From positions 4,274 to 68,273 of the forward strand of contig NZ_JACUTS010000005.1 in NCBI RefSeq assembly GCF_014859695.1: a stretch of 64,000 nt of DNA, read 5' to 3'. The notes below the pieces were generated by a model that saw nothing but the letters and a program-made list of their open reading frames with translations, searched no databases and was not told the DNA's origin. Of this stretch, positions 6,947 to 63,106 are shown piece after piece; position 1 is the first letter of the stretch, and each line of letters starts with the position of its first letter. The position numbers and the translations under genes were made by a program. The DNA comes from Sulfurimonas sp. (GTDB lineage: Bacteria; Campylobacterota; Campylobacteria; Campylobacterales; Sulfurimonadaceae).

Positions 6947-7468
6947 ATGAAGATTTTATTGATGCTTTTATCGTTGTCGGCATTTGCTTTTGGACATACG
7001 ACTTTTCTACAAAATAGCGGATTTAGCAGCGGATTTTTGCATCCAATGAGCGGTTTAGACCATGTTTTGGCTATGGTCGGTGTCGGAATAGTCGCTTTTT
7101 TTGCGCCAATGAGGGGCTATCTTCTTCTGTTTGCTTTTATAGCGGTTATGGTTGTCTCGGCAATACTGGGCTTCATTGGCGTTATGATACCTTTTGTCGA
7201 AGAGGGGATACTTATCTCCATTGCCGTTGTTTTTGCACTTATAGGTTTTGCAAAAAAGATATCTCTGAGCGCTATTGTCTCGGTAGTTGCATTTTTTGGT
7301 CTCTTTCATGGTTTTGCCCACGGAGCTGAATTTCAAAGCGGAAGTTTTGTAGCTTACATGTTGGGGTTTACTCTCTCCACGCTGTTTCTTCATTTAAGCG
7401 GTATCGCTTTGGCTTATGCATATACGAAAACTGTTTTGGTAAAACAAACGCAGAACGTAGAGCGATAA
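6947..7468 (+). CDS. hupE: HupE/UreJ family nickel transport membrane protein
   Basis: Signal peptide followed by the GFLHPMSGLDHVLAMVGVG signature. Polytopic, and sits immediately upstream of hypB. Confidence 0.8.
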   Translation: MKILLMLLSLSAFAFGHTTFLQNSGFSSGFLHPMSGLDHVLAMVGVGIVAFFAPMRGYLLLFAFIAVMVVSAILGFIGVMIPFVEEGILISIAVVFALIGFAKKISLSAIVSVVAFFGLFHGFAHGAEFQSGSFVAYMLGFTLSTLFLHLSGIALAYAYTKTVLVKQTQNVER

Positions 7469-7469
7469 C

Positions 7470-8216
7470 ATGTGCAAAGATTGCGGTTGCAGTGTTGTAG
7501 AACATAGTCATTCTCATAAAGAGAGCCATTCACATGAACATCTGCATGACAATCCACAGTTAAATGACCCTAAAACCATCTCTATAATTACAAAAATATT
7601 AGATAAAAATGACCATGAAGCTGGACATAACAGAGAACATTTTAACGCGCACGGAGTTCTTTGTATAAATCTGATGAGCAGCCCCGGAAGCGGAAAAACG
7701 GCACTTTTGGAGAGTTTGTCAGATTTGGGCGAGTTTAAATTTTGTGTCGTTGAGGGCGATTTGCAAACATGCAAAGATGTAGACAGGCTAAAAGCCAAAG
7801 GGATACAGGCTCATCAGATTCAAACAGGTTCGGCTTGTCATTTGGATGCATTTATGGTTCATAAAGCTCTGCACCACATGGATTTGGACAATATGGACGT
7901 ATGTTTTGTAGAGAATGTCGGAAACCTCGTCTGTCCTGCAAGCTATGATGTCGGAAGCCACTTAAATATAGTGCTTGTAAGTGTTCCAGAGGGCGAAGAC
8001 AAGATAGCAAAATATCCTGTTATGTTTCGTCAAGCCGATTTGATTCTTTTTACGAAAACAGACCTTCTTCCCTACTTTGAGTATGATATGAAAAAAGAGA
8101 AAGAGATGGCAAGAAAATTAAAACCAAACGTTGACATCCTAGAAGTTAGTACAAAAGATGAAGCATCATTAAGAAAAGTTTCTCAGTGGATTAAGTTTAA
8201 AATGGAGATGCGTTAG
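7470..8216 (+). CDS. hypB: hydrogenase nickel incorporation GTPase HypB
   Basis: N-terminal CxxCGC plus His-rich stretch (HSHSHKESHSHEHLH). GSGKT P-loop and ENVGNLVCPA motif. Confidence 0.95.
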   Translation: MCKDCGCSVVEHSHSHKESHSHEHLHDNPQLNDPKTISIITKILDKNDHEAGHNREHFNAHGVLCINLMSSPGSGKTALLESLSDLGEFKFCVVEGDLQTCKDVDRLKAKGIQAHQIQTGSACHLDAFMVHKALHHMDLDNMDVCFVENVGNLVCPASYDVGSHLNIVLVSVPEGEDKIAKYPVMFRQADLILFTKTDLLPYFEYDMKKEKEMARKLKPNVDILEVSTKDEASLRKVSQWIKFKMEMR

Positions 8217-8464
8217 TGTGCCTCTCCATTCCAAGCAAAGTGGTTAAAATAGATAAGCAAAACAGCGTAGCTACAGTCGATACTATGGGTGTTAAAAGAG
8301 AAGCAAGTTTGGCGCTTGTCGGCGAAGAGGATATAAAAATAGGCGATTACGTGCTTTTGCATATCGGTTTTGTAATGAGCAGGATCGATGAAGAAGAGGC
8401 ACTTCTTAGTCTTGAAGCATTTGCGAAAATAGTTGAGCTGATGGATGAGGAAGAACAGCTTTAA
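8216..8464 (+). CDS. hypC: hydrogenase assembly chaperone HypC/HupF
   Basis: 82 aa with the essential N-terminal MCLSIPSKV motif. GTG start abuts the hypB stop. Confidence 0.9.
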   Translation: MCLSIPSKVVKIDKQNSVATVDTMGVKREASLALVGEEDIKIGDYVLLHIGFVMSRIDEEEALLSLEAFAKIVELMDEEEQL

Positions 8465-9609
8465 TGAAGCAGTTAGAGCTTAAAAATCTTTATGATGACT
8501 TTAGAGATGCAGACACCATAAAAGCTTATGCAAGAATCATAAAAGAGGATGCGGCAAAGCTGAAAAATCCTATAAACATTATGGAAGTCTGCGGCGGACA
8601 TACGCATACCATCATGAAGTATGGACTTCTTCAGCTTCTGCCCTCAAATATCAAGTTTATCCACGGTCCGGGCTGTCCGGTTTGCATCATGCCAAAAGAG
8701 AGAATTGATCATGCCTATGTTTTGGCGATGCAGGAAGATGTGATATTGGTTACTCTAGGCGACATGATAAAAGTACCGGGAAGCAGAGGAACCCTTCAAG
8801 ATGCAAGAAGCAAAGGGGCAGATGTTCGTTTTGTCTATTCGCCCTTAGAGTGCCTAAAGATTGCAAAAGAGAATCCGACTAAAAAAGTCATCTTTTTTGC
8901 CATAGGATTTGAGACGACGACGCCGATGACTGCCGCACTTCTTGATGCGGTTATAAAGCAAAATATCAAAAACATCTTCTTTCACATAAACCATGTAACA
9001 GTACCCGAAGTTATGCGTGAGCTGATAGATAGCAGAGATATACATGTAGATAGCTACAACAACAAAATAGACGCATTTTTAGGGCCTTCACATGTAAGCG
9101 TGATAAGCGGAAGTAAAATCTATGAGGAGTTTCCAAGGGATTATAACCGTCCCGTGGTTGTCTCTGGTTTTGAGCCGGTTGATGTCATGCAGGCAATCAG
9201 CATGATAGTAAAACAGTTCATAGAGGGCAGATGCTCTCTTGAAGTGGAGTACAAACGGCTTGTGACTTATGATGGAAACGTCAAAGCACAGGAGCTTGTA
9301 AACAAGTATTTTGAAAAAACAGACCTGTTCAAATGGCGAGGTTTAGGCAATATCCCAAAAAGCGGAATGAAACTAAAACCTGAGTTCAAAGAGTACGATG
9401 CAGAAGTTATCTACAAAGATGTTCTCCCTCTCGGCGAAATAGAAGACCATAAACTCTGCATCTGCGGAGACATTTTAAGAGGTATGGCAAGCCCTCCGGA
9501 GTGTACGATTTTCGGCACTGCATGTAAACCGACTTCACCGATAGGAAGCTGTATGGTAAGCTCAGAGGGCGCGTGTGCGGCGTATTATAAGTATGGGAAT
9601 TTGGTATAA
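8464..9609 (+). CDS. hypD: hydrogenase Fe(CN)2CO scaffold protein HypD
   Basis: CGGHTH and GPGCPVC motifs, plus the C-terminal Cys cluster (CKPTSPIGSCMVSSEGACAAYY). Confidence 0.95.
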   Translation: MKQLELKNLYDDFRDADTIKAYARIIKEDAAKLKNPINIMEVCGGHTHTIMKYGLLQLLPSNIKFIHGPGCPVCIMPKERIDHAYVLAMQEDVILVTLGDMIKVPGSRGTLQDARSKGADVRFVYSPLECLKIAKENPTKKVIFFAIGFETTTPMTAALLDAVIKQNIKNIFFHINHVTVPEVMRELIDSRDIHVDSYNNKIDAFLGPSHVSVISGSKIYEEFPRDYNRPVVVSGFEPVDVMQAISMIVKQFIEGRCSLEVEYKRLVTYDGNVKAQELVNKYFEKTDLFKWRGLGNIPKSGMKLKPEFKEYDAEVIYKDVLPLGEIEDHKLCICGDILRGMASPPECTIFGTACKPTSPIGSCMVSSEGACAAYYKYGNLV

Positions 9610-9709: not shown

Positions 9710-9979
9710 ATGCAGACAATAAATTTAAAAATAGATGATACTTTTTTTCCACATTTTAAGGCTATTTTAGAGAGTTTTGTAAAAGACAAAAAAGTTGAAA
9801 TTATCCAAGATGATGATTTTGACTTTGAAAACAACTATCCAAAAAATGCGGTTGTAAGCAGTGTAGAAGATGTAAGAAAAAGAGTTTTTGAAGCTGAAAA
9901 AGAGATAGGCTTAAACGAAGATCAATACAACAAGTTGATGGATAAGTTTTTTACCGAAGAACTCGGCATCAAGCGATGA
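9710..9979 (+). CDS. putative type II antitoxin (family not recognised)
   Basis: 89-aa acidic protein whose stop overlaps the start of the ParE/RelE-like toxin gene by 4 nt (ATGA). The call rests on position only. Confidence 0.4.
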   Translation: MQTINLKIDDTFFPHFKAILESFVKDKKVEIIQDDDFDFENNYPKNAVVSSVEDVRKRVFEAEKEIGLNEDQYNKLMDKFFTEELGIKR

Positions 9980-10248
9980 TGATAGAAAAAAAGCCAAAGT
10001 ATATCTATGGCGTGATGAATATTCTCGGTTTTATTAAAAATGACAAGCCCCTCGCTGCAAAGAAATTTGAAAATAAACTAAACAAACGAATTGATAACTT
10101 AATACATTTTCCCCTTAAACATAGAAAATCCATCTATTTTAATGATGAAAATTATAGAGATTTGATTTATCATGGCTATACAGTCATCTATAAAATAGAG
10201 AGTGAAAAAATTTTAATACTTGATATTTTTAAATGGCAAGTGAGATAA
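9976..10248 (+). CDS. ParE/RelE-superfamily type II toxin
   Basis: 90 aa. The pattern ...FIKNDKPLAAKKFENKLNKRIDNLIHFPLKHRK...YRDLIYHGYTVIYKIESEKILILDIFKW matches the ParE-type plasmid-stabilisation toxin layout. Confidence 0.6.
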   Translation: MMIEKKPKYIYGVMNILGFIKNDKPLAAKKFENKLNKRIDNLIHFPLKHRKSIYFNDENYRDLIYHGYTVIYKIESEKILILDIFKWQVR

Positions 10249-10256
10249 AAATTTAA

Positions 10257-11396
10257 ATGAAAAACACAATCTATGAATATAGCGAAGTAGAGGATGAAAA
10301 GCTAAAAAAGTACATTATAGATACTCCTCTGCTTCATAAATATTTTAAACTTGATTGGAATATTTTAAAATCGCAGCAATATTGCGGCATACTAAACTTT
10401 GGAGATGAAGACTACTATCTGCTTCCAAAGATAAGTGAAAATAGTGATGAAAAAAATCTTGATATTTTTATCTACATGTTGATGTACGCTTACGATATAA
10501 AGCTTGAAGCCGAAGATATAGCTTCATGCAAAAATGAAAAACATAACATCTTGGAAGTTTTTATACAGATGTTTGCAAGTAACTTATTTAAAGAGTTTAA
10601 GCGAGGTGTTTATAGAGAGTACATCACAGAACAAGATAACTTGACGACTTTAAGAGGAAAATATCTCATAAATAAAAATCTAAAGTTCAATCATATAAAA
10701 AACAAGATTTACTGCGAATATGATGAGTTTAGCATGGATAATCAACTAAACCAATTCTTTTTATACGCTGTTAAAACATTATTAAAATACACAAAAAATA
10801 AAAAGCTTTTAAAACAGTGTGAGTTGGTACTTGATGAGGCAGAGTATAAAACTTTTGATATAAATAATCTACATGTACATTTTAATAGACTAAACAATAG
10901 GTTTAAAGATAGTTTTGAGTTTGCACTTTTGCTATTAAACAAATCTATTCCGCTCTTTGCAAAAGATAAAAAGAGTTTTGCATTTTTGTTTGACATGAAT
11001 GTGCTTTTTGAGAGATTTGTCGGCAAGATGATAAAAGAGCTTGAAGCCGCAACACTGCTTCAAAGTTGTGATACATACGGAGATTTAATTTTAAAACCTG
11101 ATATTATTGTAAAAGATTTGATAATTGACACCAAATATAAAAAGCTTGGCGCAAAAAATGAGATAAAAAGAGACGACAAGTTTCAGATGTTCGTTTATGG
11201 AAAAAACTATAATATAGCAAATACAATGCTTCTCTATCCGAAACATCTGGAGCATTTTGATTATGATTTGGTTTTAGGGGAAAAGGGCGAGGAAGTAAAA
11301 ATGAAGATAAAGAGTTTGGATTTGTGGTTTGATGGGTGCGGATATGATGAGTTTGTTGAAGAAATTAAAATTAAAGTCAAGGAATTGTCATGTTAG
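10257..11396 (+). CDS. mcrC: McrC-like PD-(D/E)xK endonuclease subunit of a McrBC-type restriction system
   Basis: 379 aa. C-terminal nuclease core LKPDIIVKDLIIDTKYKKL (D...D/ExK). Overlaps the McrB-like GTPase gene by 7 nt. Confidence 0.75.
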   Translation: MKNTIYEYSEVEDEKLKKYIIDTPLLHKYFKLDWNILKSQQYCGILNFGDEDYYLLPKISENSDEKNLDIFIYMLMYAYDIKLEAEDIASCKNEKHNILEVFIQMFASNLFKEFKRGVYREYITEQDNLTTLRGKYLINKNLKFNHIKNKIYCEYDEFSMDNQLNQFFLYAVKTLLKYTKNKKLLKQCELVLDEAEYKTFDINNLHVHFNRLNNRFKDSFEFALLLLNKSIPLFAKDKKSFAFLFDMNVLFERFVGKMIKELEAATLLQSCDTYGDLILKPDIIVKDLIIDTKYKKLGAKNEIKRDDKFQMFVYGKNYNIANTMLLYPKHLEHFDYDLVLGEKGEEVKMKIKSLDLWFDGCGYDEFVEEIKIKVKELSC

Positions 11397-12742
11397 ATTT
11401 AGAAAATTTTAGAAGATATTTAGAAGATATTGGATTTGGTGCTATACAAAATTACATTGCATATTTAAACTCGTTAATTAATATATTAAATCAAATTGAT
11501 GAATATCAAGCATTAAATGACCAAGATAAAGTAGTTAAATTTGCTAATGCAAATAATGAATTCAAAAATGAATTTGATCAACACCATAACTACGCTAATA
11601 ATAGCACATTTAATGATTTTAGAAGTGGCGCTAGAAAATATGTAAAGTTTTTACAATATTTTACAATTATGAATACGATGCAAGAATATGATGAAGATAA
11701 TTCTAGCTTTGATTTAAATGGTGCGTATATGTTTTTTAAAGTATTTGATGATGTGAACTCTTACCCTATAAAAGCTATATGTAAAAAAATCCAAAATAAT
11801 TTAGAGTTAGAAGAAAATTTTACTACAAATGATGCAAAAGGCAAGTTAAGAGATATATTTAATGAACAAAATATTCAATTTTTTGACAATAGAAATGAAA
11901 ATCCAATTGAGCCAGTTCAAAATCTAAAAATCAAAAATATAATCCTCTACGGTGCACCTGGAGTTGGAAAAACTCATAACTATAAAAAAATTGTGGCACT
12001 TATTGAGGGTGGTGATTTTTTAGAAAATAAAATTTTTGATTTTATTATCAATAATAAAGATGATGAAATTGAAGAAGGCAGTATTGATAGATTATTTAAA
12101 CAAGTTAAAGATGAGAAACGAGTCGAGTTTATAGCATTTCATCAAAGCTACTCTTATGAGGATTTTATAGAGGGTTTTAGACCGAGTGTGAGCGGAAATA
12201 TTGAGCTAAAAGATGGAATATTTAAAAAATTATGTAGTGATGCAGAAAAATCTGATAAAAACTTCTACATAGTTATAGACGAAATAAACAGAGGAAATAT
12301 TTCTAAAATCTTTGGAGAACTTATCACACTCATTGAAGAAGATAAAAGAGATGTTTATGAAGTAACGCTTCCGTACTCAAAAGAGAAGTTTAAAGTACCC
12401 TCAAATCTTTATATCATAGCTACTATGAACTCTACTGACAAGTCTATCGCTACTATCGACATAGCTCTAAGACGAAGATTTACATTTTTAAAGATGAAGC
12501 CAAATGAAGATTTGATTTCACATGTAAAGGCGAAGGAGCTGTTTAATAGCCTAAATAAATTTATAAAAGATAATCTAAATGAAGATTACATGTTAGGGCA
12601 TAGCTATTTTATGAATATACAAAACAGTGAAGATTTAAAATTTGTCAAAGAGTATAAAATCAAGCCGCTTTTAGAAGAGTATTTTTATGCAGATGATGAA
12701 AATTATAACAAAGCGGAAGGTATATTAAATAAATATGACTAA
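11390..12742 (+). CDS. mcrB: McrB-like AAA+ GTPase subunit with an unrecognised ~180-aa N-terminal domain
   Basis: Walker A GAPGVGKTH, FHQSYSYEDFIEGFRP, Walker B/signature VIDEINRGNISKIFGELITLIEE, GTP-specificity-like MNSTDKS, and ALRRRF. Confidence 0.85.
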   Translation: MLDLENFRRYLEDIGFGAIQNYIAYLNSLINILNQIDEYQALNDQDKVVKFANANNEFKNEFDQHHNYANNSTFNDFRSGARKYVKFLQYFTIMNTMQEYDEDNSSFDLNGAYMFFKVFDDVNSYPIKAICKKIQNNLELEENFTTNDAKGKLRDIFNEQNIQFFDNRNENPIEPVQNLKIKNIILYGAPGVGKTHNYKKIVALIEGGDFLENKIFDFIINNKDDEIEEGSIDRLFKQVKDEKRVEFIAFHQSYSYEDFIEGFRPSVSGNIELKDGIFKKLCSDAEKSDKNFYIVIDEINRGNISKIFGELITLIEEDKRDVYEVTLPYSKEKFKVPSNLYIIATMNSTDKSIATIDIALRRRFTFLKMKPNEDLISHVKAKELFNSLNKFIKDNLNEDYMLGHSYFMNIQNSEDLKFVKEYKIKPLLEEYFYADDENYNKAEGILNKYD

Positions 12743-13733
12743 AACAATAACATTATCACACGGTAACGGCGGGCAAGAGAACAACGAACTTATCTCTAAG
12801 GTTTTTTATAAGGCTTTTAAAAACGACATCCTCGACAAAAGCGAAGATGCGGCTATTATCCATAACGGGGAGTTGGCGTTTTCTACCGACAGTTTTACGG
12901 TTTCGCCTCTGTTCTTTGCGGGAGCGGACATCGGAAAGCTTGCGGTTTGCGGTACATGTAACGACCTTGCCATGATGGGAGCGAAACCGAAATATTTGAC
13001 ATGTAGCGTGATTATTGAAGAGGGTTTCCAGATGAGAGACTTAGAGAGAATCGTGCGAAGTATGAAAAAAGAGCTTGAGATTAATGGTGCGATTATAGTG
13101 AGCGGAGACACCAAGGTTGTGCCTCGCGGAAGTGTCGATAAGATTTTCATAAACACTACGGGAATCGGCGAAGTTTTGAAAAAGGGCATCAGCTCCAACA
13201 ACATAACAAAAGATGATGTCATCATACTAAACCGTGATATCGGCTGTCACGGTGCGGCTATCTTTGTAGCTCGTGAGGGCATCGAGATGAGCAGTTCTTT
13301 GCAGAGCGATTGTGAATCGCTTTATCCTCAGGTGAAGGCTCTTTTGGACGCAGACATAAAGATAACGGCTATGAGAGATGCGACTAGAGGCGGAGTGAGT
13401 GCAGTGCTAAATGAGTGGTCGAGGCAGTCAGATATCTGTATAGAAGTGCAAGAGGAGAGTATTCCCGTTAGCGATGAGGTAAAGGGTATCTGTGAGATGC
13501 TCGGTTTTGAAGCGACGGCTTTGGCGAATGAGGGTACTTTTGTTTTGGCGGTAAATCATGATGATGCCCAAAAAGCGGTAGAGATTTTAAAAACTTTTGA
13601 GAGTTGCAAAAATGCAGCGATAATCGGCAAAGTAACGGATACGCATCTAAAAAAAGTCATCTTAAAGAGCAGTTGGGGAACTTCAAGATTTTTAGATACG
13701 CCAAGCGGCGAGTTGCTTCCAAGGATTTGCTAA
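12735..13733 (+). CDS. hypE: hydrogenase maturation carbamoyl dehydratase HypE
   Basis: N-terminal ITLSHGNGG, AIR-synthase-like fold motifs and the invariant C-terminal PRIC. Its ATG overlaps the mcrB stop (ATGACTAA). Confidence 0.95.
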   Translation: MTKTITLSHGNGGQENNELISKVFYKAFKNDILDKSEDAAIIHNGELAFSTDSFTVSPLFFAGADIGKLAVCGTCNDLAMMGAKPKYLTCSVIIEEGFQMRDLERIVRSMKKELEINGAIIVSGDTKVVPRGSVDKIFINTTGIGEVLKKGISSNNITKDDVIILNRDIGCHGAAIFVAREGIEMSSSLQSDCESLYPQVKALLDADIKITAMRDATRGGVSAVLNEWSRQSDICIEVQEESIPVSDEVKGICEMLGFEATALANEGTFVLAVNHDDAQKAVEILKTFESCKNAAIIGKVTDTHLKKVILKSSWGTSRFLDTPSGELLPRIC

Positions 13734-13737
13734 AGTT

Positions 13738-15426
13738 ATGAAAATACTTCTTATCGTTTCGGCATTTAACTCTCTTACGCAAAGAGTTTTTTGTGAGCTT
13801 CAAGATATGAATCATGCAGTATCGGTGCAGTATGCCATAAGCAATGAGGCGATGATGCAAAGTGTTGACGCGTTTGCGCCAGATATCATCTTTTGCCCTT
13901 ATCTCAAAAAATACCTCCCATGTGAGATATTTCTAAAAACCCCCACTTTTATTCTCCATCCCGGCATAAGAGGAGACAGAGGACACAACGCGCTCGACCA
14001 TGCCTTGCGGGACAATAAAAAAGAGTGGGGAGTAGTCATTCTAAAAGCAAACGAAGAGTTTGACGGCGGAGATATATACGCCGAAGTCAGGTTTGAGATG
14101 AGAGATGCGACAAAGGCTTCCATATACAGAAACGAAGTCGCAGATGCCGCCTCAAAAGCGTTAAAAGAGCTGCTTAAAAATTTGGACGACAAAGAGTTCA
14201 AACCCACTCCTCAACTCAAAATGCCGATGCATAATTACTTAACGCAAAAAGAGAGAGCCATTAACTGGGAAAAAGAGACTGCTCAAGAGATTATAAAAAA
14301 GATACATGTAAGCGATAGTTTTCCCGGTGTTAAAGATGAGTTTTTGGGAATAGAGTGTTATCTTTTTGGAGCTTGGGAAGAAGATAAACTCAAAGGCAAT
14401 CCAAAAGAGATAATCGCCAAAAGAGACGGTGCTGTTTGCGTCGGCACGATTGACGGGGCAATCTGGATAAGTCACATGTCAGAAGTCGGCAGGTTCAAAC
14501 TTCCCTCAACCTATGTTTTAAAAGATAAAATCAAAGGCGTTAAAGAAGAGCGGCTTCCTCTTATTTTTGACATGAGTTATAAAACATTTTACGAAATCAG
14601 CTCCCATAAAGACGGCGAAGTCGGGTATCTCTATTTTAACTTTCACAACGGTGCTATGCATTCTGAGCAGTGCATCAGGCTAAAGTATGCGTTTGAGTAT
14701 CTGAAAGAGAGTTGCAAGGTTATAGTTTTAATGGGCGGAGCGGATTTTTTTAGCAACGGGATACATCTCAACATACTCGAAGATTCTCAAAAGCAGGGAG
14801 AAGACGGCTGGAGCAACATAAATGCTATGAATGATGTCGTAAAGTCAATCATATTCGCAGATGATGTAATCACGGTTGCATCTCTGCATAAAAATGCCGG
14901 AGCAGGCGGAGTATTTCTAGCTTTGGCATGTGATTATGTTGTTGCACGAAAAGGAGTTGTTTTGAACCCTCACTATAAAACTTTGGGGCTGAGCGGAAGC
15001 GAATATCATACATTTACACTGCCCAAAAGAGTAGGTGCGCACAAGTCAAAAGAGCTGTTGGAGAGCTGTTTGCCGATAAATGCCGCTAAAGCGAAAGAGA
15101 TAAATATGGTGGATGAGGTTTTTGAAAAAGAGAACTATTTTGAGCAATTAAGAAGTTTTGCCAATAAACTGGCAAATGCGCAAGACGAGTATGATGATTT
15201 TATATATGAAAAAGAGGATTATCTGCAAAAAAACAGAGAGTTTATAAATGAGTGCAAAGAGAATGAACTAAAGACGATGCATCCGGAATTTTGGGATAAA
15301 GAGAGTTCGTTTCACAGGCTGAGACATGATTTTGTTTATAAAGTCTGCTCAATTGAAACACCTCAGAGATTGAAATCGTACCGGTACGATGGGCTTCCTG
15401 CCGAAGGAAACTCAGCGTTAGCGTAG
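13738..15426 (+). CDS. hypX: HypX/HoxX-type hydrogenase maturation factor (formyltransferase-like N-domain + crotonase-like C-domain)
   Basis: 562 aa. N-terminal MKILLIVSAFNSLTQRV resembles HoxX/Fmt. The C-terminal half has an enoyl-CoA hydratase-like G-rich oxyanion segment (NAGAGGVFLALACD). Lies between hypE and hypA. Confidence 0.8.
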   Translation: MKILLIVSAFNSLTQRVFCELQDMNHAVSVQYAISNEAMMQSVDAFAPDIIFCPYLKKYLPCEIFLKTPTFILHPGIRGDRGHNALDHALRDNKKEWGVVILKANEEFDGGDIYAEVRFEMRDATKASIYRNEVADAASKALKELLKNLDDKEFKPTPQLKMPMHNYLTQKERAINWEKETAQEIIKKIHVSDSFPGVKDEFLGIECYLFGAWEEDKLKGNPKEIIAKRDGAVCVGTIDGAIWISHMSEVGRFKLPSTYVLKDKIKGVKEERLPLIFDMSYKTFYEISSHKDGEVGYLYFNFHNGAMHSEQCIRLKYAFEYLKESCKVIVLMGGADFFSNGIHLNILEDSQKQGEDGWSNINAMNDVVKSIIFADDVITVASLHKNAGAGGVFLALACDYVVARKGVVLNPHYKTLGLSGSEYHTFTLPKRVGAHKSKELLESCLPINAAKAKEINMVDEVFEKENYFEQLRSFANKLANAQDEYDDFIYEKEDYLQKNREFINECKENELKTMHPEFWDKESSFHRLRHDFVYKVCSIETPQRLKSYRYDGLPAEGNSALA

Positions 15427-15429
15427 GTA
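15391..15429 (+). repeat. 39-nt dispersed repeat, copy A (partner at 40552-40590, inverted)
   Basis: gggcttcctgccgaaggaaactcagcgttagcgtaggta matches the reverse complement of 40552-40590 at 32/39 positions, including an exact 13-mer. It overlaps the last codons of hypX. Confidence 0.65.
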
Positions 15430-15460
15430 GCGGAATTACTTCCGATACCGTTATATAATA

Positions 15461-15480
15461 AATAAAGGGTTCCCTTTATT
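15461..15480 (+). terminator. rho-independent terminator-like hairpin after hypX
   Basis: aataaaggg-tt-ccctttatt forms a perfect 9-bp stem, followed by T-rich ttatg. Confidence 0.45.
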
Positions 15481-15507
15481 TTATGAAATAAAATTAAGGG
15501 AGTATAG

Positions 15508-15849
15508 ATGCATGAGTATAGTATAGTCCAGTCGCTTTTGGATTCATGTGAAGAGAATGCCGTAAAAAACAACGCCACAAAAGTAACTAAAGTCGTAGTA
15601 AAAATCGGCGTTATGAGCGGAGTCGAACCTGAGCTTTTAAAAACCGCATTTGAGACATTTAAAGAGAAGACACTTTGTGAAGAGGCGGAGTTTGTTATAA
15701 ACATCCAGCAAATCGTTATAAAATGCAACAAATGTTTAAACGAATCAGTTTTAGAGAGCATGGAGTACTATTGCCCTAGATGTAAAGATGCGGATATCGA
15801 GATTCTTGATGGTGAAGATATGTACCTGATGCAGTTAGAACTTGAGTAG
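15508..15849 (+). CDS. hypA: hydrogenase nickel insertion metallochaperone HypA
   Basis: N-terminal MHEYSI nickel site and two CxxC zinc motifs (CNKC ... CPRC). 113 aa. Confidence 0.9.
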
Positions 15850-16003
15850 ATGAGTAAAAAAAATGTAGATTAGCGTAAAATAGTTTTTTATTTTTCACAT
15901 ATTTTTTAGCAGAAATAAATATAATATTTATGAATAGTTTAATATTTAAAATTGTACTATGCAGTAAAGTTTATTTTAATTTTGTTGTTTAAAGGGGTGT
16001 TGA

Positions 16004-17557
16004 ATGAGCGAAAGAAAGATTACTATAGACCCGCTTACAAGGATAGAGGGGCATCTTAAATTTGAGACAATAATCAAAGACGGGGTTGTTACGGAGGCGA
16101 AATGTTCCGCAGAGATGTACAGAGGAATTGAGAAGGCGCTTATAGGCTACGATGCCAGAGTTGCACAGCAAGTAGCTCAGAGAGTTTGCGGTGTTTGTCC
16201 TTATGCACACGCCGAAGCTGCCTCTCTTGCGCTTGAAAACGCTATGGGAATAAAGCCAAATCATAACGGACAGCTACTGAGAAATATGATTGTCGGCGCT
16301 TATCAGCTCCAAGACCATCTTTTACATTTTTATGTTTTAAGTGCGCTGGATTTTATCGATATAACCGCGGTGTTAAAATATGAGGGGGATGATGAGAGCG
16401 TCCTTAGTGTAAAAACATGGGTTCAAAACGAGCTCAAAAGCAACAAGATATTTCCTGCAGCCCCTTTTTTGCCACGCTATGAAGCGATGTATGCAAAAGG
16501 AAACAACACCAACTTTACGGCAATCAAAAACTACTTAGAAGCTATTAAGGTTATGGCCGATTTGACAAAAGCCGTTGCAATCTTCGGGGCAAAAGCGCCG
16601 CACTCTGTAACACTTGAAGCAGGCGGCGTGACAACGATTCCCACCGTCGGAAAACTTGCAAAGTACAGATCTTTAGTAACAAGTGCTAAAAATTTTATAA
16701 AAAATAACTACATAAACGACATTATCGCCGTAGCAAAAGAGTTTCCTGAGTACTTTAAAATAGGTGCAGGATACGGAGACTACCTCTCTTACCCATACTT
16801 GCCTGATGAAAACGGGGAAAATCATCTTTTTGTAGGCGGCTCGACGATTGATGGCAAGTATGAAGAGCTTGATTTGAAAAACATCTTTGAGGACCATAAA
16901 TACTCCTACTACAAAAACAAACCCGACTCCAACGTAAGACCTCTTGACTCTAAGGTGCTTACACCCATAGATTATGAAGAGTTTAAAGAGGAGCAGAAAA
17001 AAGAGGACGGAAAATACAGCTGGTCGAGAGCGCCTCGTTACAAAGGCAAAATCATGGAGGTCGGTCCGGTTGCAAGAGTTATAAACACTTATAAAAGCGG
17101 TAAAAACAAAAAACTAAACGCTCTTGTGGATTCTGTAAATAAAAAATTGGGACTTACGTTTAAAGAGTATAACTCTGTTTTGGGAAGGCATCTCTGTAGG
17201 GCTTTTATGGCATTTAGCATCATTGATAAAATCCTAGAAGATACGGAAAAAGTGATTCCCGATGAGCTTGCGTTTGTTGAGAGAGATGTTCCCAAAAATG
17301 CTGTTGGATTTGGACTTACCGAAGCAACAAGAGGAGCTTTGGCGCACTGGATAGAGACTGATGAGAGTGGTTTTATAAAAAACTATGACATGATCGTACC
17401 CACAACTTGGAATATCTCGCCAAAAGATGCAAGCGGAGTTCCCGGAGCTGTAGAGAAGATGCTTATAGGAACGAAAATCAAAGACCCCGACAACCCGATA
17501 GAGTTGGCAAGAATAGTGAGATCTACAGATCCATGTCTTGCATGCTCGGTTCATTAA
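16004..17557 (+). CDS. [NiFe]-hydrogenase large subunit, no C-terminal processing extension
   Basis: RIEGH, RVCGVCP (N-terminal Ni ligands) and DPCLACSVH (C-terminal Ni ligands). The ORF stops immediately after the His. 517 aa. Confidence 0.95.
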   Translation: MSERKITIDPLTRIEGHLKFETIIKDGVVTEAKCSAEMYRGIEKALIGYDARVAQQVAQRVCGVCPYAHAEAASLALENAMGIKPNHNGQLLRNMIVGAYQLQDHLLHFYVLSALDFIDITAVLKYEGDDESVLSVKTWVQNELKSNKIFPAAPFLPRYEAMYAKGNNTNFTAIKNYLEAIKVMADLTKAVAIFGAKAPHSVTLEAGGVTTIPTVGKLAKYRSLVTSAKNFIKNNYINDIIAVAKEFPEYFKIGAGYGDYLSYPYLPDENGENHLFVGGSTIDGKYEELDLKNIFEDHKYSYYKNKPDSNVRPLDSKVLTPIDYEEFKEEQKKEDGKYSWSRAPRYKGKIMEVGPVARVINTYKSGKNKKLNALVDSVNKKLGLTFKEYNSVLGRHLCRAFMAFSIIDKILEDTEKVIPDELAFVERDVPKNAVGFGLTEATRGALAHWIETDESGFIKNYDMIVPTTWNISPKDASGVPGAVEKMLIGTKIKDPDNPIELARIVRSTDPCLACSVH

Positions 17558-17567
17558 GGAGTAGCGG

Positions 17568-18515
17568 ATGGATTTTATAACTAGAAGAGAAGCTATTAAG
17601 CGGATGATGAGGGTGATAGCGGCTGTGGGTGCTGCGAACTTTTTTAGCTATAGCGACTTGCTTGCTATGGAAAACGGAAAAATGATAAAGCCAAATATAA
17701 TTTGGCTGCATGGCTCCTCATGTTCGGGCTGTTCTTGCTCTTTTTTAAACATTGAAGATGTCTCCGTGCTTGATATTCTCACTAGATATACAAATGTAAT
17801 CTATCATCCTGATGTCTCATTGGCAACAGGAAAGCAGGTTGTTGACTTGTTGGATAAAGCTTCAAAAGAGTTAAAAGATAACTACCTTTTTGTAGTGGAA
17901 GGTTCCATTCCCGTGGCAATGCCTCATGCCTGTATGATGGGCGATAGACCTATTATGGAGTGGATGGAGCAGATGAGCAACAGTGCTTCTGCATGTGTTG
18001 CGGCTGGAACATGTGCTGCATTTGGAGGTATTACGGGAATGCAGGGCATGGATGCGGGTGTAATGTCTGTTGGCAAATTTAACAAACATAAAAACATAAA
18101 CAAACCTGTAGTATCTCTGCCAAATTGCCCCATGAAGCCTGAACACTTAATTTATGTCATTTTTCATTATGCAAAATTCAGAACCATTCCTGAGCTTGAT
18201 GCAGAGGGAAGACCGCTTAGATTTTTCTCTCAAACCGTTCATGAGAGGTGTATATACTACTCTGAGTTTCAAGAGAAAAACTATGCAAAAAAAATCGGTC
18301 AAGCAGGCTGTCTGCTTAAGCTCGGTTGTCAAGGACCCGTTACGAAAAATGATTGTATGACGATTGGACACAATAACAACACAAATACATGTATAAAAGC
18401 GGGTCATCCATGTATAGGGTGTGCAAGCGAGCATTTTCCAAGGCAGATTATGCTTCATACTTTCAAGGACGAAAGAGCCATTGAAAAGTTTAAACATTTT
18501 AAGTTTAGGGGATAA
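17568..18515 (+). CDS. [NiFe]-hydrogenase small subunit with Tat-like N-terminal leader, no membrane anchor
   Basis: Leader is MDFITRREAIKRMM..AANFF..LLA. Fe-S ligand motifs: WLHGSSCSGCSCS, GTCAAFGG, LPNCP, HERCIYY, CLLKLGCQGPVTKNDC and HPCIGCASEHF. Confidence 0.9.
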   Translation: MDFITRREAIKRMMRVIAAVGAANFFSYSDLLAMENGKMIKPNIIWLHGSSCSGCSCSFLNIEDVSVLDILTRYTNVIYHPDVSLATGKQVVDLLDKASKELKDNYLFVVEGSIPVAMPHACMMGDRPIMEWMEQMSNSASACVAAGTCAAFGGITGMQGMDAGVMSVGKFNKHKNINKPVVSLPNCPMKPEHLIYVIFHYAKFRTIPELDAEGRPLRFFSQTVHERCIYYSEFQEKNYAKKIGQAGCLLKLGCQGPVTKNDCMTIGHNNNTNTCIKAGHPCIGCASEHFPRQIMLHTFKDERAIEKFKHFKFRG

Positions 18516-18518
18516 ATC

Positions 18519-20318
18519 ATGCAAAGGAGAAACTTTTTTGAAACCATCTTGTTTAAACTCTCTTTCCCTCTAGTTTTTAGTGTTGTAGCTATCTCTATAA
18601 TCTCTATAACACTCAACTACCATCTTCAAAAGCAAAAACTTGAGGAGATGATAGAGGATAAAGGGTCTGCTATTTTACATAACTATATTGTCTCCTCAAG
18701 AGACTCTCTTGCACGAGGTCAGCGCAAGACATTTCAATCCGCCATGGACAATATAGCACTTCTAGAGGGTGTGGAGGATACTGTTTTATATGCATCTTCA
18801 GGACTTATGAACTATAAGTCAAAAGAGGTGACGGTCGGAAAACCGTTTGTTCATAAAGAGGGTAGCTTTTACAATCCAAACAAAGAGATTTATGAACAAA
18901 CAAATGGGATGTATCTGCGAACAGACTGGAGTGATAAACCGCTTGAAGAGTCGGCGGGGTTTCATGGAAGCACTTTAATGGATAAAGAGAAGAAATGCAG
19001 CAGTTGCCACTTTGAAATTGACAGAGATTTGGAGTTTATCGACAACAGAGCCTATAAAATTGATGAAGCAGGCGATACATCTACCTTTTATGAAAAGATT
19101 ATTGCTGAGAAAGGGTGTATCGCATGCCATACAAACTGGAAAGAGGGCGGTGTTTCCGGTTATCTCGGAGTAAGTATCTCAAACAAAAAGATGAGCGATC
19201 AAGTGAAAGACAACATGTGGAACTTTACGCTCACGCTTGTTACGCTTGCATTTATAATAATCGTTATTGCTCTTATCGTCTCTTTAAAGTTTAAAAGAAA
19301 GCTGCAGCTTTTACTAGAGGGAATTAAAAATCTCAATGAAAAAAAGGGTTCACGCATAGAGATTAAAGAGAATGATGAGATTAAAGATATCGCCGGGGAG
19401 TTTAATCGCTATATAAAAAACATGGAAGATGGAGTAGTTCAAGATAATAAACTTATTGCCAATCTCTCCGATGTTGCCTCTGAGACAGCCAAAGGAGACA
19501 TGACAAAAAGAGTTGCAGTAGAAGCAAACAGTGAGTCTCTCAATAGGCTCAAAGAGATTGTCAACTCTATGCTTGATGCCATGAATACAAATATCCAAAA
19601 AGTGCTTGAAGTGCTTAAGAGCTATGAAAATGATAACTTTAAAGCGACAATAGAAGTAGCCGGTACTACAGGAAGAGTCAAAGAACTTTTTGAGAGCACA
19701 AATAGTCTTGGAAGAGCGCTCTCAAACGCAAGCAGACAGGAGTTTGAGGATGGAAACAATCTTGAAGAGCAGTCTCTTAAACTCTCTGAAAACATGACAT
19801 TGCTAACAGCTTCAGCGCAGGATCAGGCACAAAAACTCAAAGATACTTCAGAAATAATGGAGTCTATTACAGTGGCAATAAATGAGATTGTTCATAGAAC
19901 CAATGACGTAGTAAGCCAATCTGAGGATATAAAATCAGCAATAAGTATTATTCGAGATATTGCAGACCAGACCAATCTTTTGGCACTTAACGCAGCCATA
20001 GAGGCAGCGCGGGCAGGAGAGCATGGACGCGGCTTTGCCGTAGTTGCAGGCGAGGTAACAAATCTTGCTGAAAAAACACAAAAAAGTCTTAATGAGATTA
20101 CCGCAACAGTGGGTATCATGACAGGTTCTATCAATGAGGTAAGTTCTACAATGCAGGAGCAGTCCCAAGCAGTCTCAAGTATTAATGATACAATTAGCGC
20201 TCTTGAAGAGACAACACAAAAAAATGCAGATAATGCAAAAGAGGTAAGCGAGATAGTAACGCAAACCAAAGAGATGGCGGAACGCTTTGTTTACAATGCT
20301 AAATCTAAAGAGTTTTAG
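18519..20318 (+). CDS. methyl-accepting chemotaxis protein with a periplasmic sensor domain carrying two CXXCH heme-c motifs
   Basis: TM1 ~aa 13-33, ~200-aa periplasmic region with CSSCH (aa 160-164) and CIACH (aa 200-204), TM2 ~aa 234-257, a HAMP-like linker, and the conserved signalling hairpin [27 protein letters not shown]. Confidence 0.9.
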
Positions 20319-20432
20319 AATTGTAAAAGGCAAGATATAGAATATTTGGGATTTGTGGTTAAAAAAGTTCTATAAGAGTAAAACTATTGAAATATAATTT
20401 TATGATTAAACAATACTTAAAGCTTGTAAGAG

Positions 20433-20438
20433 TATAAT
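20433..20438 (+). promoter_or_regulatory. candidate -10 box (TATAAT) for rplU-rpmA
   Basis: Exact TATAAT ~90 nt upstream of the rplU ATG, in an AT-rich intergenic region. Confidence 0.35.
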
Positions 20439-20526
20439 TCCGAACTTTTTGTAGAAACAAAACCAATGGGAATGTAGATTATGCATCCATAGGGACCCAA
20501 GTATTTAAAGATTTAAGGAATTGTAC

Positions 20527-20835
20527 ATGTACGCAATTATCAAAAACGGTGGCAAGCAGTATAAAGTTCAAGAGGGCGATATTTTATTATTTGATAAAAT
20601 GTCTCTTGAGCCTAAAGCTTCTATCGAGATTAAAGAAGTTCTGGCTGTTAACACAGGCGAACTTAAAGTTGGAGCGCCTTTTGTTGAGGGTGCTGTTGTA
20701 ACTGCTGAGGTTATTAATGAAGGGCGTGATAGAAAAGTTGTTACTTTTAAAAAGCGTCGTCGTAAAGACTCTAAAGTAAAAAGAGGCTTTAGAAGAGATT
20801 ATACGCGTGTTCGTATTATAAAAATAGCGGCATAA
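20527..20835 (+). CDS. rplU: 50S ribosomal protein L21
   Basis: [18 protein letters not shown] is the canonical L21 N-terminus. I prefer ATG 20527 over the track's upstream TTG 20521. Confidence 0.95.
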
Positions 20836-20861
20836 GCTAAAAAAACTCAAGGAGATTTAAG

Positions 20862-21119
20862 ATGGCACATAAGAAAGGTCAAGGTAGTACACAGAATAAT
20901 CGTGACTCGGCTGGTAGAAGACTTGGTGTAAAGAAGTATGGTGGAGAGGCTGTAATAGCTGGAAACATTATCATTCGCCAAAGAGGAACTAAAGTTCACC
21001 CTGGTAAAAATGTAGGCATGGGCAAAGACCATACTATATATGCATTGGTTGACGGTGTTGTATCATTCCATAGAAAAGATAAAAAACGTCAACAAGTTTC
21101 AATCATCCCCGCTGCATAA
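20862..21119 (+). CDS. rpmA: 50S ribosomal protein L27
   Basis: [24 protein letters not shown]...RQRGTK.HPG signature. Confidence 0.95.
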
Positions 21120-61637: not shown

Positions 61638-61964
61638 TCAGTAAAGCTTAGATTGCAGGTTAAATCTCTTGTAGTAGACATCTATCATTTTCCTTAGCGT
61701 CTCATCGTCAAGAGTGCTCTTGTTTTTTACGCCAAATTTTTTTATGTATTCAGAAGGAAGAATAGATTTTTCGGCTATAGGCTCTTTGAGATACCCAAAT
61801 ATAGCCTCTTTGATCTTTTCTTCACTGCTGTATTTGAGGGTATATTTTTTCATAATAACATGAAATTTAAAATCACCCCCATGACAGTTTAGACAGTTCT
61901 TATCAAACTCTGAAGCGTTTAAAAAAGCAGAGATGAGAATAAAAAGAGCAATTTTTTTTACCAT
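61638..61964 (-). CDS. small periplasmic protein with one CXXCH heme-c motif
   Basis: Signal peptide MVKKIALFILISAFLNA followed by CLNCHG. Its ATG overlaps the histidine kinase stop (ATGGTAA). Confidence 0.6.
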   Translation of the reverse strand: MVKKIALFILISAFLNASEFDKNCLNCHGGDFKFHVIMKKYTLKYSSEEKIKEAIFGYLKEPIAEKSILPSEYIKKFGVKNKSTLDDETLRKMIDVYYKRFNLQSKLY

Positions 61965-63106
61965 GTCAGAGTCACCTTTGTCCCTTTGTTTGGTTTTGAG
62001 TCTATATCTATCTCCATACCATACTCCTCTGTTATCGATTTTACTATGCTGTAACCGATTCCAAATCCTCCTTGGGATTTATCGAACCTCAGGTATCTTG
62101 TAAATATTTTATCCAGCTCCTCTTTGCTCATCCCTTTGCCCCCATCTTCTATGGTTAGGTGTGTCTCATCCAGAGCGATTTTTATTTTGGTCGCTTTGTT
62201 TGTGTATTTGATCGCATTTGAGAGGATATTGTCTATAAGACGCTCCATTTTTTGTTTGTCCGCCGTAAAATGTACACTCTCTTTTATATCTAAGACAAAC
62301 TCTATCTTTTTCATATTTGCCATATTTGCGAAGTACTCCACTCTTTGAAGCACTATCTGGGAGAGATTCAGATCTACATTTTGAAGCGATGTTTTATGAT
62401 TTAAAAGCAGATAGACTAAATCTTCATAGAGATTTGAGATGCTCATGGAGGCAATCTTTATGCGCTCTAGCTTTCTTAATGTTTTTTCGTTGCAGTTTGA
62501 AGAGTCGATGGTCTCTATGTTTGTAAGTATCGCCGTGATGGGAGTGTTTAGCTCATGTGTTGTATCTTTTATGAAGTTATCAAGAAGTTTTATGTTCTCT
62601 CTAATTGGTTTTAAAACCAGATTTACGAGAAAAAACGAGGTAATAATTGTAATAAACATAACGATAATTGCAATATAGATTAGATTACTAAGTATATTTA
62701 TATCTTTAGTCTCTTTTTGCACAACAATATAAGCGGCACCCATGTAGTAGGGAGATAGAGGAGAGATGAGGTAGGATTTTGAATCTTTTATAAAGAAGTT
62801 GTTATCCAACTTTTTGACCTCTTCATCAAGAGTGCTAAAGATAAGATTTTTGTCTATGTCGTAAATGGCGCTTTTAAAATTCTCAAATCTAGGATACTCA
62901 AGTTTTTCGTCGTTCTCCTCGTGCAACAAAGAGAGCCTCTCTTCGACCTGAGTGGCGTATCTCTTTAAAATCTCCTTTTCGTCATGTAACACTTGGTCTT
63001 GTTCATAAAAATAGTAACCTGTAAAAAGAGTAACGATCAGGAGCAGTGTGGAGCTAAGGTAGAGCCCCAAAACATAGATAATACTTCTTCTCTCTCCGCT
63101 ATACAA
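61958..63106 (-). CDS. sensor histidine kinase (HisKA + HATPase_c, two TM helices with periplasmic loop)
   Basis: H-box THELNTPITAI, N-box LIDNILSNAIKY and G-boxes EDGGKGM / GGFGIGYSIV. Confidence 0.9.
   Translation of the reverse strand: MYSGERRSIIYVLGLYLSSTLLLIVTLFTGYYFYEQDQVLHDEKEILKRYATQVEERLSLLHEENDEKLEYPRFENFKSAIYDIDKNLIFSTLDEEVKKLDNNFFIKDSKSYLISPLSPYYMGAAYIVVQKETKDINILSNLIYIAIIVMFITIITSFFLVNLVLKPIRENIKLLDNFIKDTTHELNTPITAILTNIETIDSSNCNEKTLRKLERIKIASMSISNLYEDLVYLLLNHKTSLQNVDLNLSQIVLQRVEYFANMANMKKIEFVLDIKESVHFTADKQKMERLIDNILSNAIKYTNKATKIKIALDETHLTIEDGGKGMSKEELDKIFTRYLRFDKSQGGFGIGYSIVKSITEEYGMEIDIDSKPNKGTKVTLTW

Follow-up and report, generated by a model that had tools for sequence, protein, structure and literature searches.

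A candidate periplasmic hydrogen-sensing module of Sulfurimonas that pairs a [NiFe]-hydrogenase with a predicted two-haem chemoreceptor

The established sensors of molecular hydrogen (H2) are cytoplasmic regulatory hydrogenases that control transcription. The [NiFe] 2c and [FeFe] C2 hydrogenase classes, both putative as sensors, are as far as we know cytoplasmic as well and without haem, and we know of no bacterial chemoreceptor for H2; in the periplasm, the physiological acceptor of the Desulfovibrio [NiFe]- and [NiFeSe]-hydrogenases is cytochrome c3. An archaeon has been shown to respond to H2 by positive taxis, although no receptor was identified (PMC3817446). In the available part of the HydDB class table the sensory classes are [NiFe] 2b (linked to histidine kinases), 2c (linked to diguanylate cyclases, putative) and [FeFe] C1 to C3 (C2 being 'chemotactic', putative), and the group 1 classes shown in that 2016 table include no sensory subclass (PMC5037454). 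Here we describe a three-gene locus in a 64,000-nucleotide stretch of Sulfurimonas sp. DNA (assembly GCF_014859695.1, contig NZ_JACUTS010000005.1, positions 4,274 to 68,273; hereafter the window, in whose own numbering positions are given). It consists of hydL and hydS, which encode the large and small subunits of a [NiFe]-hydrogenase, and a gene for a methyl-accepting chemotaxis protein (MCP) with two CXXCH motifs, the attachment signature of c-type haem. We think it likely that these genes form a periplasmic H2-sensing module in which the hydrogenase reduces the haems of the receptor. An earlier reading of the sequence alone (the sequence-only reading) had proposed a redox-sensing receptor of this kind, and those parts of the proposal that can be tested computationally, namely motif conservation, predicted compartment and genetic linkage, hold. 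The features concerned are the following (aa, amino acids; nt, nucleotides; TM, transmembrane segment; Tat, twin-arginine translocation).

16004-17557, forward strand: hydL, [NiFe]-hydrogenase large subunit, 517 aa (Pfam NiFeSe_Hases, E=9.4e-138)
16040-16054, forward strand: RIEGH motif of HydL
16181-16210, forward strand: L1 motif RVCGVCPYAH of HydL
17528-17554, forward strand: L2 motif DPCLACSVH of HydL, the last residues of the protein, with the stop codon next
17568-18515, forward strand: hydS, hydrogenase small subunit, 315 aa (Pfam Oxidored_q6 and NiFe_hyd_SSU_C)
17568-17669, forward strand: Tat-type signal of HydS, aa 1-34, with TRREAIK at 17580-17600
18240-18251, forward strand: distal-cluster HERC motif of HydS
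18519-20318, forward strand: MCP gene, 599 aa, starting 3 nt past the hydS stop codon
18543-18617, forward strand: TM1 of the MCP, about aa 9-33 (Kyte-Doolittle scan)
18618-19220, forward strand: predicted periplasmic two-haem sensor domain with Cache/PDC-like fold, aa 34-234 (AlphaFold2, Foldseek)
18963-18965, forward strand: His149, candidate distal axial ligand of one haem, kept in 46/55 homologues
18996-19010, forward strand: CSSCH, first haem-c attachment motif, aa 160-164, invariant in 55/55
19116-19130, forward strand: CIACH, second haem-c attachment motif, aa 200-204, invariant in 55/55, with the conserved Trp207 after it
19221-19292, forward strand: TM2 of the MCP, about aa 235-258 (Kyte-Doolittle scan)
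19848-20276, forward strand: MCP signalling domain, aa 444-586 (Pfam MCPsignal, E=8.4e-33)

The order hydL-hydS-sensor is kept in Campylobacterota, Gammaproteobacteria, SAR324 and other lineages, within unrelated flanks. Five loci from Sulfurimonas metagenome-assembled genomes hold hydL-hydS-MCP, the upstream flank differing in one of them (L003), and in a survey made from the hydrogenase side a two-CXXCH MCP lay immediately downstream in 8/10 non-Sulfurimonas loci, with the two motifs at the same positions in all eight. When loci were looked up from the sensor side, a hybrid histidine kinase, a GGDEF protein, an MCP of a divergent branch and an Hpt-HATPase protein were each found directly after hydL-hydS; the gene for the Hpt-HATPase sensor is followed by CheX and a receiver domain. 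A scan of metagenomes for the sensor domain, with a 3-sequence alignment as query, gave 31 loci, of which 26 have HydS (plus HydL where the contig allows) directly upstream, 2 are uninformative owing to a contig end, and 3 are one and the same truncated remnant of 201 aa. With all sensor-found loci pooled, HydLS is directly upstream in 36 of the 39 informative ones, the three exceptions being that remnant. The hydrogenase-receptor pairing, noticed by the sequence-only reading as operon context, is conserved across phyla and across output domains; to combine one conserved input with outputs that can be exchanged is typical of sensory modules. Between hydS and the sensor gene the distance ranges from -11 to +46 nt over 13 loci and is mostly at most 4 nt (3 nt in the window, where an AGGGGA ribosome-binding site for the MCP gene is placed within the 3' end of hydS). 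A tblastn search against plasmids returned no matches.

The truncated two-haem copy (L051 5606-6247, L052 4040-4681, L053 1034-1675) is without TM1, ends just inside TM2, and has no hydrogenase in the 4-5.6 kb upstream. No other copy of the domain was found to lack HydLS, and this one appears to be the leftover of a gene in decay.

Re-translation of the MCP gene put CSSCH and CIACH at exactly the residues given by the sequence-only reading, and hydropathy agrees that both lie between TM1 and TM2. Basic residues stand N-terminal to TM1 (MQRRN) and C-terminal to TM2 (KFKRK), that is, on the cytoplasmic sides of the two helices, and the intervening aa 34-234 are therefore taken to be periplasmic. 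The protein has four cysteines in all, every one of them inside the two CXXCH motifs. The chance expectation of CXXCH is about 5e-4 per 200 aa; the open reading frames (ORFs) of at least 100 aa in all six frames of the window (23,098 aa) contain three, two of them in the MCP, and 0/200,000 shuffles of aa 34-233 gave two. These shuffles and the family-wide invariance described below rule out a chance origin of the pair. The Gly-rich segment noted earlier behind the second motif is present (aa 205-221), but it does not lie directly before TM2 as had been said: about 13 residues of predicted helix come between, and in the structural model the segment forms one of the beta-strands of the sensor fold instead of a linker abutting TM2. 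On the cytoplasmic side, the Pfam scan scored MCPsignal at 114 bits (cut-off 34.6), with the hairpin-tip motif of the signalling domain at aa 487-501 (nt 19977-20021); a HAMP domain after TM2 reached 23.3 bits where the cut-off is 25, and the Campylobacter CcaA receptor model matches the entire part of the protein from TM2 onwards.

An exhaustive HMMER search for the sensor domain through 1.84 billion representative sequences found a family of 57 clusters (50% identity) at E<1e-10 and 30-47% identity. A word-indexed protein search, made with the single sequence and with a 42-sequence profile, gave no matches, not even to the close Sulfurimonas orthologues present in NCBI metagenome-assembled genomes; as the exhaustive search had found 57 clusters, this empty result does not argue for a rare family. 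In 55/55 aligned homologues (30-93% identity) and in the five Sulfurimonas orthologues the two CXXCH motifs are invariant, at a spacing of 36-40 residues and with variable XX positions; conservation in orthologues, on which the sequence-only reading had staked its proposal, thus extends to distant homologues. Also invariant in the family alignment are F72, Y99 and R134 (window-protein numbering), and S63, K66, G67, Q68, Q73, G107, P109, F110, N119, D136, W137 and W207 are nearly so. His149, conserved in 46/55, precedes the first CXXCH by 10-15 residues, and at least one haem is probably bis-His with this residue as its distal ligand. The output domain in the family is mostly that of an MCP, the others being hybrid histidine kinase, GGDEF and Hpt-HATPase. 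In one database protein of 243 aa (P0060), pieces of HydL and of the two-haem domain share a single frame with a GGDEF-like tail; this is probably a chimera that arose in assembly or gene calling from a high-GC hydL-hydS-sensor locus.

The fold of the sensor domain was modelled by AlphaFold2 from a 42-sequence alignment, which gave a predicted local distance difference test (pLDDT) score of 93.2 and a predicted template-modelling (TM) score of 0.88; a single-sequence run, with pLDDT 46, was unusable. The model opens with a long helix at the N-terminus, followed by a second helix, a sheet of five to six strands and a C-terminal helix continuing into TM2, with the first CXXCH inside a long insertion past the second strand and the second CXXCH between the last two long strands. 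This order of elements fits the Cache/PDC superfamily, and the top Foldseek matches in the PDB are all extracytoplasmic PDC/Cache sensors (WalK/YycG, CitA, KinD, PctD, Tlp3 and DctB), although these matches are weak (E=1.4e-3 or worse, target-normalised TM-score at most 0.60). The sensor domain reached no Pfam model at threshold. On the window protein Pfam gave sub-threshold cytochrome matches at aa 147-208 and nothing on the rest of the domain, and across the family the sub-threshold matches were to Cytochrome_C7 (41/42 members), MtrC/F (38/42), Cytochrom_CIII (33/42), Tll0287-like (11/42, best E=0.0057) and sCache_4 (5/42); neither the matches of the window protein nor the best family-wide E-values come near the gathering thresholds. 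A phmmer search against the PDB found nothing at E<=10. A profile search of the PDB gave marginal matches to MtrC domain IV and to the Desulfovibrio high-molecular-weight cytochrome c, which have in common the pattern H-x(~10)-CXXCH-x(~35)-CXXCH and are similar to the query in this segment only; His149 aligns with the His ahead of the CXXCH pairs in MtrC domain IV.

The families that the sequence-only reading had suggested for the domain (DUF3365/Tll0287, GSU0582/GSU0935 and Cache) found no match at threshold in the Pfam and PDB searches. DUF3365/Tll0287 (PF11845) was rejected at E=0.71 and 10.7 bits for the window protein against a cut-off of 24.1, and also because that family has a single CXXCH where two are invariant here. 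An hhalign comparison with a Tll0287-like kinase covered 38 columns around the second haem site and the next strand at a probability of 46%, and Tll0287 itself (5b82) had E=0.36 in the PDB profile search. The GSU0582/GSU0935 type gave no phmmer or profile match, and the GSU0935 structure 3b42 stood at Foldseek rank 16 (E=0.06, TM-score 0.27/0.43). The class III cytochromes c3/c7 were rejected as well (Cytochrom_CIII 14.8 against 22.9 bits, Cytochrome_C7 17.7 against 24.8 bits). We read the model as a Cache/PDC-like scaffold that bears a two-haem c3/MtrC-like fragment, and as judged by these searches the domain is a distinct family, previously undescribed and unannotated. In one of the loci (L022) a histidine kinase whose sensor domain is genuinely Tll0287-like (sCache_heme) is encoded 2.6 kb past hydL-hydS-sensor, on the reverse strand (10966-12423), so that both kinds of haem-c sensor domain occur in one genome.

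The hydrogenase can supply electrons to such a domain only if it works on the same side of the membrane. The HydS N-terminus, MDFITRREAIKRMMRVIAAVGAANFFSYSDLLAM, combines a twin-arginine motif with a hydrophobic stretch and closes in an A-x-A-like sequence; the Tat motif [ST]RRx[AFVL][ILV] and a hydrophobic stretch are present in 15/15 HydS compared, and the HMMER alignment of HydS to the D. vulgaris [NiFeSe] small subunit extends over the signal peptide of the latter. For both subunits the nearest solved structures are Desulfovibrio periplasmic [NiFe]- and [NiFeSe]-hydrogenases, and TIGR00391 hydA is above its cut-off. The enzyme is thus predicted to be periplasmic and group-1-like, and with the Tat signal conserved and the closest relatives periplasmic, hydrogenase and haems are expected to share one compartment, as is required if the adjacent hydrogenase is the donor that the sequence-only reading took it for. 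From a cytoplasmic location electron transfer to periplasmic haems would be impossible; a cytoplasmic group 2b/2d hydrogenase is excluded by the conserved Tat signal and the group 1 similarity.

Mature HydS reaches a hydropathy maximum of 1.34, so no TM segment is predicted in it and it has no membrane anchor. It retains the distal HxxC and GCxxxxGC ligands and has an extra medial Cys as in [NiFeSe] enzymes, whose medial cluster is [4Fe-4S] by virtue of that residue; all three of its Fe-S clusters are probably [4Fe-4S], to judge from these ligands. It is not itself part of an [NiFeSe] enzyme, since L2 has Cys and there is no in-frame TGA, and a lipoprotein anchor in the style of the D. vulgaris [NiFeSe] enzyme was rejected because the signal region is without Cys, the first one being at aa 52. 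HydL has no C-terminal extension in 15/15 compared loci, and 14/15 stop at DPCxACxVH; in L021 (3523-5055), of the divergent branch, the terminus is DPCLACSVQ, with Q in place of the usual His. Exported [NiFe]-hydrogenases of the standard kind have the extension removed as the checkpoint ahead of assembly and export; the extension is missing also from the regulatory hydrogenases HoxC/HupV. The order of large then small subunit gene reverses the usual one and is conserved across the HydL clade, as is the missing extension. Members of the clade are 504-517 aa long and 46-96% identical over the 15 compared loci, and of about 4,300 HydL homologues in the database the 120 best matches are at least 60% identical to the window protein; the clade occurs in Sulfurimonas, Arcobacteraceae, Sulfurospirillum, SAR324, Thiocystis, other Gammaproteobacteria and 'Deltaproteobacteria TL4'. 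No cytochrome b, cytochrome c3, Isp or endopeptidase gene was found near hydLS in the window, and no respiratory acceptor gene stands beside hydLS in the window or in the sensor-linked loci with annotated neighbours.

These findings are consistent with the following mechanism. The Tat signal on HydS would carry the cofactor-loaded HydLS heterodimer into the periplasm, where HydLS, lacking an anchor helix and any neighbouring gene for cytochrome b or c3, would stay soluble. The Cache/PDC-like domain of the MCP would bind two c-type haems covalently, at CSSCH and CIACH, and HydLS would dock onto it, oxidise H2 and pass the electrons through its three [4Fe-4S] clusters, the His-ligated distal one last, to the receptor haems. 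The redox state of the haems would then reflect the supply of H2 against re-oxidation by an oxidant, and would alter the conformation of the sensor domain, a change that TM2, the HAMP region and the signalling hairpin would relay to CheA; the behavioural output may include H2 taxis, of whichever sign. In other lineages the same HydLS and two-haem input would control a diguanylate cyclase or a kinase of the hybrid histidine or Hpt-HATPase type.

Several points weigh against this interpretation. The loci sampled from metagenomes contain near-duplicates, and the correlation of pairwise divergence between HydL and the sensor domain (r=0.58, 0/5000 permutations), which favours the pairing, is also expected of any two co-inherited genes. 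Two Sulfurospirillum-like loci (L007 2850-10485 and L015 2830-10481, HydL 65% identical) have a hydrogenase of the same clade and no sensor; there the hydrogenase lies at the end of a molybdopterin-oxidoreductase operon, preceded by genes for a DsbB-like membrane protein, the molybdopterin oxidoreductase, a 4Fe-4S protein and a NarJ-like chaperone, an arrangement that suggests a periplasmic H2:molybdoenzyme electron-transfer unit. Because of these two loci the hydrogenase clade is not exclusively sensory, and they indicate that the enzyme can serve as a modular electron donor, which fits electron transfer to a docked partner. Finally, the second distal haem ligand has no clear candidate (Met97 is present in 41/55, and Lys66 is Arg in the window protein), and with this ligand ill-defined one haem could be five-coordinate and gas-binding.

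The last point leads to the alternative that survives best, in which the receptor is a general periplasmic sensor of redox state or of gases (nitric oxide (NO), O2, CO, sulfide) and the hydrogenase genes are merely co-expressed with it, for example for O2 avoidance, no electrons passing between them. As a second invariant distal ligand is missing, one coordination site may be open; sCache_heme/DUF3365 domains behave as NO sensors when fused to signalling modules (PMC12889525), GSU0582/GSU0935 are haem-c PAS-like sensors, and the region of the second CXXCH has the weak local likeness to the Tll0287 haem site described above (38 columns, 46%). Co-regulation, however, fails to explain why HydLS is directly upstream in 36/39 loci, or why the pairing outlasts changes of output domain and of flanks while the hydrogenase has no other acceptor gene, and the domain is below the Tll0287 Pfam threshold; we regard this alternative as unlikely.

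A somewhat poorer case can be made for the two-haem domain as a membrane-tethered docking site and electron relay, through which an energy-conserving hydrogenase would feed soluble cytochromes or oxidases, signalling being a side function. The nearest enzymes to the hydrogenase are respiratory ones of the Desulfovibrio type, which use cytochrome c3, the haem segment is similar to c3/c7/MtrC, and the two molybdoenzyme operons suggest that the clade acts as a modular electron donor. Yet the partner always bears a signal output (MCP, histidine kinase, GGDEF or Hpt-HATPase); respiratory modules, whether quinone-reactive or multihaem, never occur in it, the quinone pool is out of reach for two TM helices that hold no cofactor, and the abundance of receptors is normally far below the needs of respiratory flux, all of which makes such a relay improbable. 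That the receptor senses the hydrogenase by conformational contact alone, its haems being structural or serving another purpose or its CXXCH motifs binding a metal, we consider very improbable: the signalling mechanism of the regulatory hydrogenase-HoxJ pair is itself unresolved (PMC6978683), but the invariant C, C and H with variable XX, the fixed spacing and the upstream His are the haem-c signature of multihaem cytochromes, and the protein has no further Cys with which to form a metal site.

The genes upstream of the proposed H2-sensing module in the window include a set for hydrogenase maturation.

6947-7468, forward strand: hupE/ureJ nickel permease (Pfam HupE_UreJ)
7470-8216, forward strand: hypB (NCBIfam)
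8216-8464, forward strand: hypC (HypC-like N-terminus CLSIP after a GTG start codon)
8464-9609, forward strand: hypD (NCBIfam)
9710-9979 and 9976-10248: ParD/ParE-like toxin-antitoxin pair, between hypD and hypE
10257-11396 and 11390-12742: McrC/McrB restriction system, between hypD and hypE
12735-13733, forward strand: hypE (Pfam AIRS/AIRS_C)
13738-15426, forward strand: hypX-like gene (Pfam Formyl_trans and ECH_1)
15508-15849, forward strand: hypA (Pfam HypA)

The order hypE-hypX-like-hypA directly upstream of hydL is common to loci L001, L002 and L004. In L001 and L004 the 3-4.7 kb that precede hypE showed no McrBC and no hypD, so that 9710-12742 appears variable and resembles an inserted defence islet. 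HypX (HoxX) provides the active-site CO ligand under aerobic conditions, and the HypX-like gene is a hint at maturation of the sensor hydrogenase while O2 is present. Downstream the neighbours of the module are rplU, rpmA and obg. A promoter and terminator scan of 15300-20900 gave no excess over shuffled sequence and is uninformative on operon boundaries. No cytochrome c maturation gene is present among the annotated ORFs, which span part of the window; in Campylobacterota cytochrome c maturation is generally by System II (CcsBA). A single CLNCH motif stands in an ORF of 108 aa (61638-61964, reverse strand) with a signal-peptide-like N-terminus and no Pfam match. This ORF overlaps the end of a gene pair for a histidine kinase (61958-63106) and a response regulator (63099-63755), and its product may be a small periplasmic haem protein tied to this two-component system.

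Vents, sediments and guts are all places where H2 is a major source of energy, and carriers of the module (Sulfurimonas, purple sulfur bacteria and SAR324) dominate redox interfaces. We found no prior description of a hydrogenase paired with a haem chemoreceptor in the searchable literature, and within that literature the sensor domain, the predicted compartment and the proposed haem relay are all novel for an H2-sensing hydrogenase system. Our results point to a widespread and so far unreported bacterial route to H2 sensing outside the cytoplasm; if this is true, a compact and conserved three-gene module would offer a testable route for taxis, biofilm control and gene regulation by external H2. 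They also define a family of unannotated sensor domains (the 57 clusters) and a distinct hydrogenase clade, which at present would be annotated as an ordinary uptake enzyme, so that metagenomic estimates would put respiratory H2 oxidation too high. In biosensor design, too, a hydrogenase with a haem signal as its report of H2 might find a use. We lean, by a little, towards a broader view, in which HydLS and the two-haem Cache-like domain would be an unrecognised, phylum-spanning class of periplasmic H2 sensor: a Tat-exported [NiFe]-hydrogenase, independent of any maturation protease and kept mainly for signalling, would write the H2 level into the redox state of two receptor c-haems and so, interchangeably, into chemotaxis, two-component and cyclic di-GMP outputs. 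The 599-aa protein would then be the first dedicated bacterial H2 chemoreceptor, and its sensor domain a second, independent cofactor-bearing Cache domain.

How the module relates to described systems can be set out component by component. The putative [NiFe] 2c and [FeFe] C2 enzymes, as they appear in the part of the HydDB table cited above, resemble it in the idea of a hydrogenase that feeds H2 information into cyclic di-GMP or chemotaxis signalling (PMC5037454). The sCache_heme (DUF3365/Tll0287) domains share with its receptor an extracytoplasmic Cache-type fold (here modelled, and Cache-like), a cytochrome-derived c-haem motif and MCP, histidine kinase and GGDEF outputs, but they have one CXXCH where there are two here, their fused forms behave as NO sensors, and the paper that describes them makes no mention of hydrogenases (PMC12889525). 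Geobacter GSU0582/GSU0935 and Desulfovibrio DcrA are, like the MCP of the window, chemoreceptors with a periplasmic covalent c-type haem (here predicted) and a part in redox or ligand sensing; they differ in having a single haem each, and GSU0582/GSU0935 form a PAS-like swapped dimer. For none of these, sCache_heme, GSU0582/GSU0935 or DcrA, do we know of a dedicated hydrogenase partner.

On the side of the enzyme, the group 1 uptake [NiFe]-hydrogenases have the same L1 and L2 motifs, a small subunit with a Tat signal and the closest similarity, whereas HydLS has no adjacent acceptor gene (cytochrome b, c3 or Isp) and no extension for an endopeptidase to remove. The Desulfovibrio [NiFe]/[NiFeSe]-hydrogenases with type I cytochrome c3 offer the nearest parallel for the proposed transfer of electrons, being soluble Tat-exported heterodimers whose His-ligated distal cluster donates to c-type haems. 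The acceptor there, however, is a free respiratory tetrahaem cytochrome and here, putatively, two haems in a Cache-like sensor domain; moreover, HydL is without the C-terminal extension and the gene order is reversed. With no extension on HydL and no respiratory acceptor at hand, the module recalls the group 2b regulatory hydrogenases (HoxBC-HoxJ of Cupriavidus necator and HupUV-HupT of Rhodobacter): in both cases a hydrogenase gene stands beside a signal-transduction gene, H2 is the input and the enzyme a dedicated, non-energy-conserving one (both here proposed), the large subunit is without C-terminal extension, and the three Fe-S clusters are probably all [4Fe-4S]. The group 2b enzymes are cytoplasmic and without a signal peptide, and their partner is a soluble histidine kinase, contacted at its PAS domain; the group-1-like HydLS, by contrast, has a Tat signal and the large-then-small gene order, and is paired with a transmembrane receptor whose periplasmic domain is predicted to hold two haems and whose counterparts in other lineages extend the outputs from chemotaxis to cyclic di-GMP and phosphorelay.

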